A stretch of DNA of 63,293 bases, taken from an uncultured Candidatus Saccharibacteria bacterium (GTDB taxonomy: Bacteria > Patescibacteriota > Minisyncoccia > Phycocordibacterales > UBA9973). Under the pieces are notes generated by a model. That model was not told the DNA's origin. It did not search any database and saw nothing but the letters and a program-made list of their open reading frames with translations. The stretch covers positions 1 through 63,293 of the forward strand of contig CAYHBR010000004.1 in the NCBI GenBank assembly GCA_964354985.1, read 5' to 3'. Both the position numbers and the translations under genes were made by a program. Every line of letters starts with the position of its first letter. Position 1 is the stretch's first letter. This document shows, piece by piece, positions 24,667 to 31,234 of the stretch.

Positions 24667-27600
24667 TTATTTTTCTATCTTAACTTTTAATATAGAATCG
24701 GCGATTTTAACCTCTTCCCCATCATTTACATCAAAACTTATTTTCGAAACCATGACAGTTTTTTTGATATCATCGACAAATTTTTCAATCAAGTTTCTGC
24801 CTGATTCATCGGTTTCTATAATTAGTGAAATCGTATCAGACGGAGTGAGACCAGAGACCCTGCGCATATCCTGCAGCGCACGAATGAGTTCACGGACATT
24901 GCCTTCGGCGCGAAGCTCTGGGGTGATCTCAGTATCAAGAACAAATATCGCTTCTTTTTGAGCATCATCAAAAAATGTAAAATCAATATTTTTTACATTT
25001 ATTTCATCTTTAATAATTTCTAGATAATCAACCCAGTTGTCAGATAGTGTTATTCTATTTTGAGAAATCACAAACCTCGAGAGTGGTTGCCTCACTGGAA
25101 TTTTATTTTCCTGACGAGCAGCCAGTGCTTTTTCAACAATGCTTCGCGCGCGAGTCATATCAGAGATAACATTTTCGTTTACTTTGCCTGCAACTGGCCA
25201 AGTCGAAAGGTGCACACTTTCGGCGTCTGCATTTTTTTCGCGTGCGAGATTTTTTTCGTCTCCAACGATTTTCAATTTCTGCCAAATATCTTCGGCGGCA
25301 AATGGCGCAAATGGCGCGAGTACCTGCGAAAGTTTTTTGAGCACTATATATAATGTCTGCTTTGCATGTTGTGTGTCGATTGTGTCGCGTGTATTTTCTG
25401 CACCTTCATTTTTTGTATAATCATGTTTCAATCGGTCGCGCGAACGGCGCAAATACCAAGTCGACATGTCACCAATAAAATCACGAATTGCACGAACTGG
25501 TTCGATCATTCGGTAGCCATCGAGTGAATTTGTTGTTTCGGCAATCAATTGATTGAGACGTGTCAAAATCCATTGGTCTAAAACATTTTTGGATTTTTCG
25601 ACAGCACTTTCTGCTGTTGCCTCAAGCACCACATCTCGATAGAGTTCGTAGAAAGCCAAGACATTGTAAGTCAGTCCAAGCGTTTTACTTGCAAGTTCAC
25701 GCACGACTGCTTCATCGTAGTTTTTTCCTTCGCCTGGCTGGTTAACTGAGAACATCCAGAGACGCAAAACATCGACGCCATATTTATCCATTTGCTCCCA
25801 CGGATTTACAATGTTGCCGATAGACTTCGACATTTTTTTGCCGTCTTTGTCGAGCAAGTGTCCGAGACAAATAACATTTTTGTACGGCGTTCCGCGACCC
25901 ATGAGTACACCGACAGCGAGCAGTGTGTAGAACCAGCCACGAGTCTGATCGATCGCTTCTGAAATAAAGTCAGCTGGGTAGCCTTTCGTTTCGATCCATT
26001 CTTTATTTTCAAATGGATAGTGATCTTGGGCAAACGGCATCGAACCCGAGTCGAACCAAACATCCATAACTTCCTTGACACGACGAAATTCCTTGCCATC
26101 TTTTTCGAGCACAATGTCGTCGATAAATGGACGGTGCGGATCTAGCTCAAAATTTTCGTTGTGTGGAAATGGCGCGAAGTCAATTTTTTTATACTCCGCA
26201 TTTTTGAAATAATGATAACCGGGAATTCCTGAAATAGCATCGAGCGACTGCTGTGGCGAAAACATTTTAGCTGAAGTATCAAGTAGCCACGCCGGACCAC
26301 CGTGTGTGACTATCAAGATCTTTTTGCCACTATACTTAGTTTCAATATCAAATATAAAATCGAGCACACGCTTTCTAACATCAGCATATGACTCACCACC
26401 AACTGGTGCAGTCGTAAAATACTCAGCTGTTTTTGGAAAAGCAGAGTGGTACTCATCCCAAGTTTTTCCATCGTAGGTCTCACCGAGTTGAAATTCGATC
26501 AAGCGAATATCCTCTATTACTGCACTCGCGTCGAGGCCAAAAATTTTGGCTATTTCTTCAGCGGTTTCTTTGGTTCGACTGAGTGGTGAATAGAAAATAT
26601 AATCGAGACTTGTTTCAGATCTTATTTTTTCTGCCGTATCCGCCACTGTTTTTTTACCATTTTCTGTGAGGCTCGATTTTTCACTGAGTTCATCGGTGAT
26701 AAGATTTAGTAAATTTGAATCTGTCTCTCCGTGGCGCACTGCGTAATAAGTATTTCCACTACGCTTTGTAAGTTTTCGAATAGTCTCAAAAGAGTCGGCA
26801 ATTATTTTTTCGCCATCCTCGGCAATCCAAATCGGCAGAGGTGTTCCCCAATATCGTTCGCGTGAAATTGCCCAGTCTTTGACTTCGCGAATCCATTCGC
26901 CAAAACGACCTTCTTTGATATGCTCCGGCTCCCAATTTATTTTTTCGTTTTCAGCAACCAACTGGTCTCGCATTTTTGACATAGCAATGTACCAAGAATC
27001 CCGCGCATAATAAATGAGCGGAGTTTTGCAACGCCAGCAGTGTGGGTAGTTATGTTCAAATTTCTTTTTATCAAAAAGAAGTGAACCGGTCGGGCGATTT
27101 GCTAGGTCTTTTATGATGTCGATTGCAACATCTTCGTCTTTTACAAAACGGCCTTCAAGAAAATCTGTACCTTTAATAAATTTACCTTCGACATCGACAG
27201 TGTGGAATTTGGGCAAACCAACTTTTGAACCAAGTTCAAAGTCGTCAGCGCCGTACATGGACGCAATATGGACAATTCCAGTACCGTCTTCGGTCGTGAC
27301 GAAATCCGCCGCGTAGACTTTGTACGCATTTGGCATTTTTTCTTTTTCGCTATTTTTTTCTTCCGCCGAGATAATATTGCTAAGGTATGGATAAAGTGGT
27401 TCGTATTCCATGCCGACCATTTGGTCTCCGGTAAATGAAGTTACAATTTCTAAATTATCACCTAAAGTTTGCTTTCTTTCATCAGCAATAATTAATATTT
27501 CATCATCTTTTTTTATAAAAACATAATTAATATTTCCACCCACAGCCAAAGCCACATTACCTGGTAATGTCCATGGTGTCGTTGTCCAAGCCAACAAATA

Positions 27601-28305
27601 ACAAACATACTCTTTTCCATCTTCGAATTTAAGTTTATTTTTTAGCTTAAATTTCGCCGTCAGAGAAAGATCTTTGACATCTGCGTAGCCTTGCGCGAGC
27701 TCATGTGTCGCAAGAGCAGTTCCGCAACGCGCGCACCATGGCACGATTCGGTAGTCTTTGTAGAGCAAACCTTGTTCGTCGACGCGTTTGACTATACTCC
27801 AAAGTGATTCGACATAATTGGTATCAAAAGTATAGTAAGCTTTTGACTTGTCTACCCAGTAGCCGATGCGATCGGTAAAACTTTCCCAATCAGCGATAAA
27901 TTCAAAAACACTTTCGCGACATTCGCGATTAAACTTTGCAACTCCATATTCTTCAATTTCTTTTTTTGACTTGAGACCCAACTTTTTTTCAATCTGAAGT
28001 TCAACAGGCAAACCGTGAGTGTCCCAACCAGCGCGACGAGGCACACGAAAGCCTTGCATCGTTTTATAGCGAGGCATGACATCTTTGAAAGCCCGAGCTT
28101 CAAGGTGATGGAGTGCAGGCTTGGCATTGGCTGTCGGTGGGCCTTCGTAAAAAACATATTCACCTTTTGGAGCAACTTTTTCAAGAGTTTTCTGGAAAAT
28201 TTTCTGCTCTGCCCAAAAATGCAGCACGGCTTCTTCCCTCAGTGCTTGCACTGACTTGGTTGGTTGGTCTTTTTCTTGATTTTTTTCTTTTTCGTTATCT
28301 TTCAT
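24667..28305 (-). CDS. ileS: isoleucine--tRNA ligase carrying an inserted histidine-phosphatase (PGAM-like) domain
   Basis: PPTANAKPALHHLEAR (HIGH region), WTTTPWTLPGN (editing domain), WAISRERYWGTPLPIW, DVWFDSGS and KMSKSIGN. At 1212 aa it is about 200 aa longer than usual, because of the insert at aa ~518-715 (RHGETDSN ... IVTHGG). Confidence 0.93.
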   Translation of the reverse strand: MKDNEKEKNQEKDQPTKSVQALREEAVLHFWAEQKIFQKTLEKVAPKGEYVFYEGPPTANAKPALHHLEARAFKDVMPRYKTMQGFRVPRRAGWDTHGLPVELQIEKKLGLKSKKEIEEYGVAKFNRECRESVFEFIADWESFTDRIGYWVDKSKAYYTFDTNYVESLWSIVKRVDEQGLLYKDYRIVPWCARCGTALATHELAQGYADVKDLSLTAKFKLKNKLKFEDGKEYVCYLLAWTTTPWTLPGNVALAVGGNINYVFIKKDDEILIIADERKQTLGDNLEIVTSFTGDQMVGMEYEPLYPYLSNIISAEEKNSEKEKMPNAYKVYAADFVTTEDGTGIVHIASMYGADDFELGSKVGLPKFHTVDVEGKFIKGTDFLEGRFVKDEDVAIDIIKDLANRPTGSLLFDKKKFEHNYPHCWRCKTPLIYYARDSWYIAMSKMRDQLVAENEKINWEPEHIKEGRFGEWIREVKDWAISRERYWGTPLPIWIAEDGEKIIADSFETIRKLTKRSGNTYYAVRHGETDSNLLNLITDELSEKSSLTENGKKTVADTAEKIRSETSLDYIFYSPLSRTKETAEEIAKIFGLDASAVIEDIRLIEFQLGETYDGKTWDEYHSAFPKTAEYFTTAPVGGESYADVRKRVLDFIFDIETKYSGKKILIVTHGGPAWLLDTSAKMFSPQQSLDAISGIPGYHYFKNAEYKKIDFAPFPHNENFELDPHRPFIDDIVLEKDGKEFRRVKEVMDVWFDSGSMPFAQDHYPFENKEWIETKGYPADFISEAIDQTRGWFYTLLAVGVLMGRGTPYKNVICLGHLLDKDGKKMSKSIGNIVNPWEQMDKYGVDVLRLWMFSVNQPGEGKNYDEAVVRELASKTLGLTYNVLAFYELYRDVVLEATAESAVEKSKNVLDQWILTRLNQLIAETTNSLDGYRMIEPVRAIRDFIGDMSTWYLRRSRDRLKHDYTKNEGAENTRDTIDTQHAKQTLYIVLKKLSQVLAPFAPFAAEDIWQKLKIVGDEKNLAREKNADAESVHLSTWPVAGKVNENVISDMTRARSIVEKALAARQENKIPVRQPLSRFVISQNRITLSDNWVDYLEIIKDEINVKNIDFTFFDDAQKEAIFVLDTEITPELRAEGNVRELIRALQDMRRVSGLTPSDTISLIIETDESGRNLIEKFVDDIKKTVMVSKISFDVNDGEEVKIADSILKVKIEK

Positions 28306-28345: not shown

Positions 28346-28403
28346 TATAAAATAAAAACTCGCCCACGAATTACGATTGTAAAAATCATAATCCAAGGGC
28401 GAG
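28346..28403 (-). terminator. T-box-controlled intrinsic terminator
   Basis: Minus strand: CUCGCCC...(AUUAUGAUU-UUUAC-AAUCGUAAU)...GGGCGAG followed by UUUUUAUUUU. Confidence 0.8.
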
Positions 28404-28650
28404 CTTCTTTGTTCTGCGCGACAATCTGCCGGCAACGAGCACGCGGTACCACCTTGTTTTTTTGCATCAGGATTTTGCAAAAGCTCTGCAAAACAACGAC
28501 ACAACTCATTGTTGCTATTACGGGCAACCCGCCGGATTTTACTCACCTTCCTTTCGGTTCCCAACTTTTAGTTTGGGCTGTTTCGCATTAAAATGCAAAT
28601 CAGGCTTTCTTTCCAGAGCTCAGGGGTGATGACCCCTTCAGCGCTTGTGA
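28346..28650 (-). promoter_or_regulatory. T-box riboswitch leader of ileS
   Basis: The minus strand carries the exact T-box core GGUGGUACCGCG (plus-strand 28442-28453). An antiterminator can be drawn as CAAGG[UGGUACC]GCG...CGC-CCUUG, and its 3' strand (AGCUCGCCCUUG) is also the 5' arm of the terminator. UGGU fits a tRNA with discriminator A. ileS lies downstream. Confidence 0.85.
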
Positions 28651-29521: not shown

Positions 29522-31234
29522 CTACATTTTCTCAGGAACTTTTATTCCGAGCAAATACAATCCTTTAGAGAGAACGTTTGCAACTGCACCAGACACAGCG
29601 ACACGGTAACCGCTTGTCGTATCAGTTTCAGAAATTATTTGTTCGTTTGCATAAAAATTGTTAAATGCGCCAGCTAGTTCTATGAGATATGTCGCAATGT
29701 GGTGTGGTGCACGATCTTCTATCGCACGGAGAGTGACTGCCGGAAAACGCTCGAGAATTCTTTCGATGTTTATTGTGACATCTGTGGGATTTTTAAGACT
29801 TGGTTTTATACCAGCTTCTTTTGATTTGCGACAGATGGAGCGCGCACGAGTTGCTGAGTACTGCAGGTACGGACCAGAGTCACCATCGAAAGAAATTGAT
29901 TTATCAAAATCAAAAATAATATCGCTTCCTATTCCGGAATGCAATATCGAAAATTTTATAGCAGATACTCCGACAGCCTCAGCAACTACTGCTCTTTCTT
30001 CAGCAGTGAAGTCACGTTCTTTGATAATTTCCAAGATAGATTCTTTGGCATCACGAATAAGTGACTCTCCGGTTATAACATTGCCCCTCCTTGAACTCAT
30101 TTTGCCTGCCGCGAAACGCATCATTCCGTGTGTAATGTGTTCCATTTTTTCGGCATAGTTTTCTTCTTTGAACATCTGGCGAATTGCTTCCGTCACAACT
30201 TCCATATAATCTTTTTGCTCAATGGCTGTTGTAACAATAGAAAGATCCGGATTTATTTTAGTGAATTTCTCAACAGTAAGTGCCAATTCTTTTGCGTCGT
30301 ATAAAGGCAGTCCTTGGCTTGTTAAAAATACGCGGGTATGCAACTTTTTATTAAACTTTTCTGCTCGAAAAATAACAGCACCATCTGATTCTTCAAAAAC
30401 ACCTTTTTCCAAATACTCACGAACCAAAGCCACTCCGTGAGAAGCGACTTCTGATTCGAAAAAATAATTATCAAATTTTGTACCAAGAGTTTTGTATATC
30501 TCTTCAAATGCTTCAAGTGTAACCTTGCGTCCTTCAGCGTAAAGTTCTTTGTATTCTGCATCGCCCTCATATAGTTTTTTATTTAAAATATCAATCTCAT
30601 TTTTGACGCCTTCCTCGTCTTCATACAGAGCACTGCCGAAAGCGTAACACTCGCCAATATAGTCAGCTTTTTCACTCACTGTTTTTCCGAGTATCCCTTG
30701 TCCTTTTTTCAATATACCAAACATTGTTTTTGCAACATGAAGTCCTATGTCTCCCTGATAATTTGCGCGAACAACCTCGCCTCCGTGAAAATCAATCAGG
30801 CGGGCGATCGATTCCCCTATTGCATTCGACATCAAGTGACCAATATGAAAAGGCTTGAACGGGTTTGGTTGGGTGTACTCAACGACAACTTTTTTTGTTT
30901 CAAATAAATCACTTCTTCCAAAAAGATCGCCGTCGCGAAGAATAAATTCTAGGATACCGGTAAAATATTCACGCGATAAATTGAAATTTATAAAACCTGG
31001 TCCGGCGACATTCACTGAATCAATATATGGGGGTAGGTTGTCTTTCATCTCAGTGACGATAGCCTGCGCAATAGTAACTGGTGACTTTCCATACTGCTTT
31101 GAAATACTAAGTGCCACAGAAGACATATAGTCACCGTGTCCCAGTTCTTTTGGGTACATTATTTCTGCTTTGCCGACCAAAAAGCCGACCTTGCGCATTG
31201 TGTCTTCTAAAAATGTTTGGAGTTTATCTTTCAT
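29522..31234 (-). CDS. argS: arginine--tRNA ligase
   Basis: EYTQPNPFKPFHIGHLMSNAIG (HIGH), a DALR anticodon-binding C-terminus and the typical terminal Met. Confidence 0.95.
   Translation of the reverse strand: MKDKLQTFLEDTMRKVGFLVGKAEIMYPKELGHGDYMSSVALSISKQYGKSPVTIAQAIVTEMKDNLPPYIDSVNVAGPGFINFNLSREYFTGILEFILRDGDLFGRSDLFETKKVVVEYTQPNPFKPFHIGHLMSNAIGESIARLIDFHGGEVVRANYQGDIGLHVAKTMFGILKKGQGILGKTVSEKADYIGECYAFGSALYEDEEGVKNEIDILNKKLYEGDAEYKELYAEGRKVTLEAFEEIYKTLGTKFDNYFFESEVASHGVALVREYLEKGVFEESDGAVIFRAEKFNKKLHTRVFLTSQGLPLYDAKELALTVEKFTKINPDLSIVTTAIEQKDYMEVVTEAIRQMFKEENYAEKMEHITHGMMRFAAGKMSSRRGNVITGESLIRDAKESILEIIKERDFTAEERAVVAEAVGVSAIKFSILHSGIGSDIIFDFDKSISFDGDSGPYLQYSATRARSICRKSKEAGIKPSLKNPTDVTINIERILERFPAVTLRAIEDRAPHHIATYLIELAGAFNNFYANEQIISETDTTSGYRVAVSGAVANVLSKGLYLLGIKVPEKM

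Follow-up and report, generated by a model that had tools for sequence, protein, structure and literature searches.

A histidine phosphatase nested in the CP3 loop of a type-2 isoleucyl-tRNA synthetase of Patescibacteria

Results

A histidine phosphatase lies inside the ileS gene

The window analysed in this work is a stretch of 63,293 nucleotides from an uncultured Candidatus Saccharibacteria bacterium of the UBA9973 lineage (Patescibacteriota; assembly GCA_964354985.1, contig CAYHBR010000004.1, positions 1 to 63,293). It carries an ileS gene encoding a type-2 isoleucyl-tRNA synthetase (IleRS) of 1212 amino acids (aa), and a branch-1 histidine phosphatase (HP) is nested in frame within this protein. 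The features of the locus are collected in Table 1. Along the ileS product, the Pfam domain tRNA-synt_1 (E 5e-118) is split around His_Phos_1 and is followed by Anticodon_1 and a C-terminal DUF5915. The whole protein scored 850 bits against TIGR00392, the curated ileS equivalog (cut-off 621.4), the MupA/MupB (type 2) models being the next best with 742-745 bits. Its closest solved structures are the Priestia megaterium IleRS2 (8c8w/8c8u), the Thermus IleRS and eukaryotic enzymes, and the isolated editing-domain structures 1wk8 and 1udz were matched as well. The AlphaFold model of the full-length protein was superposed on 8c8u/8c8v/8c8w with a TMt of 0.78-0.81.

The hallmarks of the synthetase are in place on both sides of the insert. 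The Thr-rich motif of the editing domain, connective polypeptide 1 (CP1), reads TTTPWTLPGN (aa 241-250, 27556-27585) and is invariant or nearly so in 83 related IleRS-HP proteins of the candidate phyla radiation (CPR). T241, T242, C191/C194 and C423/C426 are invariant in these relatives, the Cys pairs of the CP core thus being kept. The motifs EVMDVWFDSGS (aa 745-755) and KMSKS (aa 824-828, 25822-25836) follow in the second Rossmann half. The HIGH signature has the consensus xxHH among the 83 relatives, in line with the ALHH of the window protein. This A/GXHH form of HIGH is known from IleRS2 only and has been tied to mupirocin hyper-resistance (Brkic et al. 2023, PMC10485003). The genome (0.71 Mb in 23 contigs) is rated 100% complete, and a search of it found one IleRS. 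As the sole enzyme of its kind, the protein must therefore be, judging from its sequence, a functional type-2 IleRS, which presumably aminoacylates tRNA-Ile.

Table 1. Features of the ileS locus, with positions in the window
Feature	Position	Strand	Basis
ileS, type-2 IleRS with nested HP, 1212 aa	24667..28305	minus	ORF call and Pfam
Second half of the Rossmann fold (DVWFDSGS, KMSKS), anticodon-binding domain and type-2 C-terminal domain DUF5915	24667..26070	minus	Pfam, alignment, sequence
CP3, C-terminal part (FPHNENFELDPHRPFIDDIVLEKDGKEFRRVKE); second zinc-knuckle Cys pair missing (EKDG)	26071..26169	minus	sequence, P. megaterium alignment
Nested branch-1 HP, aa 518-712	26170..26754	minus	PF00300, own hidden Markov model (HMM), AlphaFold, Foldseek
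H668, second catalytic His (LIVTHGG)	26302..26304	minus	142/142 nested IleRS inserts
E604, predicted general acid; aligns with the Glu of PhoE 'LREIHLG'	26494..26496	minus	1ebb/1h2e alignment
R577, second phosphate-binding Arg	26575..26577	minus	142/142 nested IleRS inserts
R524-H525-G526, phosphate-binding Arg and nucleophilic His (RHG)	26728..26736	minus	sequence, conservation
CP3, N-terminal part (TPLPIWIAEDGEKIIADSFETIRKLTKRSG); first zinc-knuckle Cys pair missing (AEDG)	26755..26841	minus	sequence, compared with P. megaterium WECEGC
First half of the Rossmann fold, CP core, CP1 editing domain, CP2 and CP2-CP3 linker KDWAISRERYWG	26842..28104	minus	Pfam tRNA-synt_1 aa 27-516, 8c8w alignment, names as in PMC7955072/PMC7191050
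HIGH signature as ALHH (A64-L65-H66-H67), non-canonical A/GXHH type	28105..28116	minus	sequence, PMC10485003
Candidate divergent T-box leader upstream of ileS	28392..28650	minus	RF00230 full-length, 32.9 bits, E 1.1e-5, gathering score 93
argS, conserved upstream neighbour of the ileS/HP unit	29522..31234	minus	Pfam Arg_tRNA_synt_N, tRNA-synt_1d, DALR_1

The initial annotation had placed an insertion of about 200 residues at 26161-26754, and all the strings that it quoted were recovered where it had reported them, including KDWAISRERYWGTPLPIWI at aa 476-494 and RSGNTYYAVRHGETDSN at aa 515-531 of the ileS product. This interval corresponds to aa 518-715. Its start was retained, and its end was moved to aa 712 (26170) on the basis of the HMM and of the strands in the AlphaFold model, the envelope of our own HMM covering aa 515-712. 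Alignment with the P. megaterium IleRS2 bore out the size of the insert: residues 21-514 and 719-1173 of the query pair with residues 11-476 and 484-911 of the 8c8w chain, so that this enzyme has only about 7 residues at this place.

The host segment was first taken for a short connector; it is in fact the CP3 subdomain, which measures 50-70 aa in other IleRS (PMC7191050, PMC7955072). The connective polypeptide of the Candida and yeast enzymes is made of the CP core, CP1 (editing), CP2 and CP3, the last of which (CaIleRS 473-534, ScIleRS 459-526) connects CP2 with the second Rossmann half, differs in topology from species to species and binds zinc in Thermus (PMC7191050, PMC7955072). The linker between CP2 and CP3 in the Candida and yeast IleRS, ARDWNVSRNRYWG, lines the pocket of the tRNA 3'-end (A76) (PMC7955072, PMC7191050). 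The equivalent linker of the window protein is KDWAISRERYWG (aa 476-487), and HP begins about 30 residues further on, after an N-terminal part of CP3 which forms two strands and one helix in the AlphaFold model. The remainder of CP3, FELDPHRPFIDD...RRVKE, sits between HP and DVWFDSGS. The zinc knuckle of CP3, two Cys-x2-Cys pairs, was not found in the window protein, which reads AEDG...EKDG where P. megaterium has CEGC...CPVC. Residues of the linkers are conserved on both sides of HP (S516, N518, Y520, P714 and H715), P714, H715 and H724 being nearly invariant. HP is thus nested in the CP3 surface loop, topologically inside the split Rossmann fold and outside its core sheet.

The insert has the fold and the catalytic residues of small phosphatases

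The insert matched His_Phos_1 (PF00300) at aa 521-677 with an E-value of 1.3e-29 and 103.7 bits, well over the gathering score of 21.7. Among solved structures its best sequence relative is PhoE/YhfR (E 3e-13), followed by the phosphoserine phosphatase PspA. The AlphaFold model of the full-length protein reached a predicted local distance difference test (pLDDT) value of 90.2 and a predicted template modelling score (pTM) of 0.82, with values of 90-96 for the blocks of the insert, and the insert modelled alone gave a pLDDT of 95.2 and a pTM of 0.92. As the initial annotation had proposed to verify by structure prediction, the insert is thus confidently predicted to fold as an independent lobe. 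A Foldseek search with the insert model retrieved GpgP, PspA, PhoE and the Entamoeba phosphoserine phosphatase, with template modelling scores (TM) of 0.70-0.78 and root-mean-square deviations (rmsd) of 2.4-3.2 Å, the probability being 1.00 for 4qih, 4ij5 and 1h2e. Structures of cofactor-dependent phosphoglycerate mutase (dPGM) and bisphosphoglycerate mutase (BPGM) fitted less well, with rmsd of 5-8 Å. The best NCBIfam match was NF005567, the phosphatase half of RNase H/acid phosphatase, with 81.8 bits against a cut-off of 326. All the named phosphatase equivalogs remained below their cut-offs: CobC with 78.8 against 162.9, PspA with 57.1 against 350, SixA with 26.1 against 74.5, and GpmB too. 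On these scores the insert resembles the named equivalogs and cannot be filed as a member of any of them.

The two histidine motifs of the family, both arginines and the predicted Glu acid are intact in the insert and conserved in its relatives, in agreement with the claim of the initial annotation that a complete branch-1 HP lies within IleRS. R577 is carried by SPLSRTKET (aa 573-581) and H668 by LIVTHGGP (aa 664-671). R524, H525, R577, E638 and H668 were kept in all of the 142 nested IleRS inserts compared, E604 in 141 (the remaining one having Asp) and N531 in 131. The R and H of the RHG motif were found in 14/14 inserts of valyl-tRNA synthetase (ValRS) and in 24/24 tandem copies, and the catalytic set is intact in the 14 ValRS inserts as well as in both copies of the 12 tandem proteins. 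Identity of the relatives to the query insert goes down to 28-45%. Such a near-total retention of the catalytic residues in about 180 nested copies, at about 30% identity, indicates retained catalysis as far as comparison of sequences can tell. With a pI of 5.1 and a net charge of -8, the insert is acidic; the median pI of the family is 5.9.

The nested phosphatase is widespread in Patescibacteria

The distribution of HP was surveyed in 401 genomes sampled from the class of the window, with a match threshold of E <= 1e-5. A match was obtained in 310 of them, representing 228 out of 283 genera, and HP is almost always found within IleRS. ORFs of at least 669 aa, most of them of 1100-1260 aa, contain at least 147 of the best 150 matches. 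A word-indexed search led to 88 clusters of IleRS-length proteins with the insert, from sources named Paceibacterota, Nomurabacteria, Minisyncoccota and Patescibacteria. In a sample of the whole phylum, nested copies were found in other classes too, where several families have tandem forms of 1450-1550 aa. When every protein of a library of 1.8 billion was scored, 662 representatives were recovered at E <= 1e-10. A phosphatase nested in a synthetase had initially been described as very unusual; this is true of bacteria in general, but not of Patescibacteria, where it is the rule. The feature is ancient within this phylum, and the window protein is an ordinary member of a widespread protein class.

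Some metagenome proteins show further arrangements. P0259 contains four HP copies in one IleRS, and P0309 and P0230 have an extra HP between the catalytic and the anticodon-binding domains of IleRS, which makes a third insertion site. P0316, a class Ia synthetase of 1066 aa, harbors an in-frame IS200-like Y1 transposase (aa 340-461), HP (aa 680-854) and GNAT (aa 935-1063). Annotation pipelines label the IleRS-HP proteins just 'class I tRNA ligase family protein'.

Unfused copies of the phosphatase also lie next to ileS in several families

Three genomes from two families of the class (G348, G086 and G208) encode an IleRS of 924-934 aa without insert, the catalytic domain of which is uninterrupted. 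In each of them a free HP gene (184-194 aa) lies directly upstream of ileS and overlaps its start by 1-4 bp. In G348 and G086 this gene is also located downstream of argS; the G208 locus starts at a contig end. A survey of stand-alone HP across the phylum located 6 of 40 homologues at 5 kb or less from ileS or valS, in three more families. For a single gene and a genome size of about 0.9 Mb, such a proximity is expected by chance in about 2% of cases. The arrangements included argS-HP-...-ileS in one family and one free HP directly upstream of valS. At two loci, L029 (G564:C20) and L030 (G508:C2), a free HP was observed directly upstream of an IleRS which itself contains a nested HP, the two HPs belonging to different clades.

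In the HP tree, the inserts nested at site A, the first copies of the tandem forms and the free genes adjacent to ileS form one clade of 163 sequences (support 85), within which the insert of P0114 and the free HP of G348 (SA_G348) are sisters (support 99). In the tree of the IleRS backbone, computed without the inserts, the enzymes that lack an insert branch within nested clades at three places at least, and G348 is again nearest P0114. The two trees agree, and therefore HP and IleRS co-diversify and the nested and adjacent states have been interconverted. The IleRS of G348 (L010 5355-8129, minus strand) has a very long branch, 1.45 changes per site, within a clade of IleRS with nested HP.

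ValRS proteins with HP make up 14 clusters, including P0086 and P0144, from sources named Falkowbacteria and Peregrinibacteria among others. HP occupies the same CP3 position as in IleRS and splits the zinc knuckle of this subdomain, according to the pattern WYCENC...[HP]...CPTCG...DTLDTWFSS; P0086 retains the Cys pairs (CENC...CPTC) around its insert. The ValRS inserts and the second HP of tandem IleRS fall in HP clades other than the one associated with IleRS, and were therefore captured independently.

Gene neighborhood and lower glycolysis

Between 22741 and 31234, on the minus strand, the gene order is argS, a DUF4406-like ORF of 259 aa, ileS[HP], an S-adenosylmethionine (SAM) methyltransferase gene, Ser_hydrolase and an unassigned ORF of 256 aa. 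The frame dut-argS-[variable]-ileS[HP]-[variable]-recO is kept in relatives, in which the cargo after ileS varies: it consists of a Pol-beta nucleotidyltransferase, or of Lactamase_B, Ser_hydrolase and beta-lactamase. The suggestion that the insert acts on an intermediate linked to the downstream operon is not borne out, since what lies downstream of ileS differs among relatives with the same insert. No T-box was found upstream of ileS at the Rfam gathering score; the weak full-length match to RF00230 in this region could represent a divergent T-box of CPR.

The genome has no His_Phos_1 domain other than the insert. Phosphoglycerate kinase (PGK) is encoded at C3:23828-24946, and neither a cofactor-independent phosphoglycerate mutase (iPGM) nor apgM was found in the genome. 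Enolase_C had no match in this 100% complete genome, while controls were positive in 14/14 genomes. Lower glycolysis thus appears to stop at 3-phosphoglycerate. A soluble pyrophosphatase (PPase) is encoded at C11:9851-10207, and its presence disfavours the insert as a substitute inorganic pyrophosphatase.

Discussion

Relation to known proteins

The window protein is homologous over its full length to the P. megaterium IleRS2 (8c8u/8c8v/8c8w) and to the T. thermophilus IleRS (1ILE), with an E-value of 1e-225 and TM of 0.78-0.88. Both Rossmann halves, CP core, CP1, CP2, CP3, the anticodon-binding domain and the type-2 C-terminal domain come in the same order as in the P. megaterium and Thermus enzymes, and the A/GXHH variant of HIGH is shared with natural IleRS2. 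Unlike the P. megaterium IleRS2, it holds an enzyme of 195 aa in place of the short CP3 loop and has lost the four cysteines of the zinc knuckle. The insert itself shares its fold, its size of about 200 aa and its full catalytic set with PhoE/YhfR (1EBB, 1H2E), Hydrogenobacter PspA (4IJ5), the mycobacterial GpgP Rv2419c (4PZ9, 4QIH) and CobC. Those are free-standing enzymes with known small-molecule substrates, whereas HP here forms part of a class Ia synthetase or is linked to it genetically.

Apart from one descriptive sentence in Kantor et al. 2013 (mBio, PMC3812714), our literature searches turned up no work on aminoacyl-tRNA synthetases (aaRS) with a nested HP. That sentence, based on two genomes of another class, mentions in-frame domains of the phosphoglycerate mutase (PGM) superfamily in CPR IleRS, without analysis of the site, the catalytic residues, the distribution or the gene linkage. 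The window protein resembles the IleRS of that report in having an in-frame PGM-superfamily domain, and differs from it in having a single HP and no Nudix domain. The RNase H/acid phosphatases of the Rv2228c/SCO2299 type (NF005567) provide a precedent for a CobC-like HP fused to a nucleic-acid enzyme; the partner enzyme is another one and the fusion is end-to-end, whereas HP is nested here. Extra domains inserted in connective polypeptides are also known from the CP1 editing domain, the leucine-specific domain of leucyl-tRNA synthetase (LeuRS) and NF040702 'ileS_w_GNAT'. An insertion of this kind can turn into a second active site, as CP1 demonstrates; CP1 is universal and acts on aminoacyl-tRNA, whereas HP is restricted to a lineage. 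The HP-IleRS architecture is thus almost undescribed, the type of IleRS and the kind of small phosphatase being each known.

A probable active phosphatase kept with IleRS

We propose that one polypeptide combines two enzymes, a type-2 IleRS and, in its CP3 loop, a branch-1 HP of about 195 aa, which would be a phosphomonoesterase of the small PhoE/PspA/GpgP/CobC type and not a phosphoglycerate mutase. By homology, H525 would attack the phosphate of the substrate to form a phospho-histidine intermediate, the phosphate being held by R524, R577, H668 and N531, and E604 would protonate the leaving group and then activate water. Comparison shows that the HP clade stays attached to IleRS in interchangeable forms, as a single nested domain, as tandem nested copies or as a separate gene overlapping the start of ileS. 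Selection would keep HP co-expressed with IleRS, in most lineages in a physically fixed 1:1 ratio. To this reading, an active phosphomonoesterase that selection holds together with IleRS, we assign a probability of roughly 60%, as suggested by the residue conservation and the linkage of HP. Our leading guess for the substrate is a soluble phosphorylated small molecule or nucleotide, and not tRNA itself; the initial annotation had put forward ppGpp, Ap4A or a 2'/3'-phosphate as candidates. Going by the topology of the fold, the HP pocket would be situated where strand 1 ends, across from the attachment point, and probably points away from CP3.

Several observations weigh against this proposal. 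Of the 401 genomes of the class, 91 (23%) have no detectable HP copy, which means that cells can do without the function or replace it. Nor is the link between HP and ileS obligatory: within the HP clade associated with IleRS, four stand-alone members lie away from ileS, beside genes for glycosyltransferase, aminotransferase, isochorismatase, deaminase and rubrerythrin, without common neighbors. The loops of CPR aaRS also host GNAT, an in-frame IS200-type transposase and a Nudix domain (Kantor 2013, PMC3812714), and a permissive insertion site may account for some of the pattern. Lastly, the acidic surface of the insert gives no sign of tRNA binding.

Alternative explanations

Two more specific explanations refine the proposal of an active phosphomonoesterase linked to IleRS, and their odds are not to be added to the one given above. 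According to the first, HP is an ordinary metabolic phosphatase, mechanistically unconnected to aminoacylation, which travels in a permissive loop of an essential gene expressed strongly and constitutively. It could act as a nucleotide, sugar-phosphate, 3-phosphoglycerate or phosphoserine phosphatase, and would be kept because nesting guarantees its expression where promoters are few. As the only His_Phos_1 domain of the genome, it must cover any HP function that the cell needs, and PGK without enolase makes 3-phosphoglycerate a dead end which a PhoE-like enzyme could clear. The acidic surface, the metabolic phosphatases as nearest folds, the GNAT, Nudix and transposase domains carried by CP3 and other CPR aaRS loops, the 23% of the class without HP and the unlinked stand-alone members are equally in its favor. 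What such a passenger does not predict is that HP would remain beside ileS after leaving it, with overlapping stop and start in several families, that different HP clades would be recaptured by ValRS and by the second site of IleRS, or that the HP and IleRS trees would agree. In addition, the conserved linkers (S516, N518, Y520, P714, H715) suggest a fixed docking geometry and not a neutral tether. We hold its chances to be somewhat short of even.

According to the second, HP would be a third active site, besides synthesis and editing, of the IleRS and ValRS of Patescibacteria, and would act on a ligand of the synthetase, whether nested or encoded before ileS. It might strip a blocking 3'-phosphate, an opened 2',3'-cyclic phosphate or a 3'-pyrophosphate from tRNA-Ile before charging, or else destroy a phosphorylated nucleotide by-product or a poison of IleRS that mimics the aminoacyl-adenylate. 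The same kind of enzyme has joined two class Ia synthetases repeatedly and independently at the CP3 loop, and operon coupling persists without fusion; together with the conserved linkers and the concordant trees, this speaks in favor of such a site. The CP2-CP3 linker just upstream lines the A76 pocket of the tRNA (PMC7955072), the best NCBIfam match is a phosphatase half also paired with a nucleic-acid enzyme, and the variant of HIGH associated with antibiotic hyper-resistance in the host fits past selection by IleRS inhibitors. Against it, the insert is acidic, and the fold topology suggests that HP is joined to CP3 by the sheet edge lying across from the pocket, which should then face away from CP3. 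Moreover, HP is carried by IleRS and some ValRS only, though every tRNA would need such a repair, and it is dispensable in 23% of the class. A third site thus appears rather unlikely.

A catalytically dead module, in which an enlarged CP3 would stabilize the enzyme or sense a phosphorylated ligand, might explain why the zinc-knuckle cysteines were lost, HP replacing them structurally, and why the linkers are conserved. It is very improbable, as essentially every nested copy retains the nucleophilic and the second His, the two Arg and the Glu despite the low identity. Still less credible is a moonlighting dPGM that would fill the missing glycolytic step. The domain does belong to the dPGM superfamily, the genome has PGK and neither iPGM nor apgM, and the archaeal short dPGM model NF038349 was weakly matched with 63.8 bits. 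This score is far below the cut-off of 225, as are those of the other dPGM models, TIGR01258 (26.8 against 81.7) and PRK01295 (37.7 against 316). The nearest folds are phosphatases, and a cell without enolase would have no use for 2-phosphoglycerate. A missing glycolytic dPGM was rejected on these grounds, and the initial description of the domain as PGAM-like is correct for the superfamily but not for a mutase activity. Finally, a chimeric misassembly or annotation artefact at 26161 or 26754 has a negligible probability and was ruled out, because the frame is single and continuous, the GC content is even across both junctions (0.40-0.42) and hundreds of independent assemblies show the identical architecture, which was met in over 300 genomes and over 150 protein clusters.

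Significance

The aaRS are among the best-studied enzymes. Time and again, new steps of translation quality control have come to light through domains acquired by these enzymes, editing domains and tRNA-binding appendages among them. To our knowledge, the hydrolysis of phosphomonoesters has no known role in aminoacylation. A phosphatase whose catalytic residues are intact is bound to IleRS across a whole bacterial radiation, in nested, tandem or translationally coupled form, and has been captured independently by ValRS. If this coupling is mechanistic, it would add a new accessory step to tRNA charging or represent a new way in which a synthetase protects itself. Otherwise, it would clearly illustrate how ultra-small genomes pack unrelated enzymes into essential genes.

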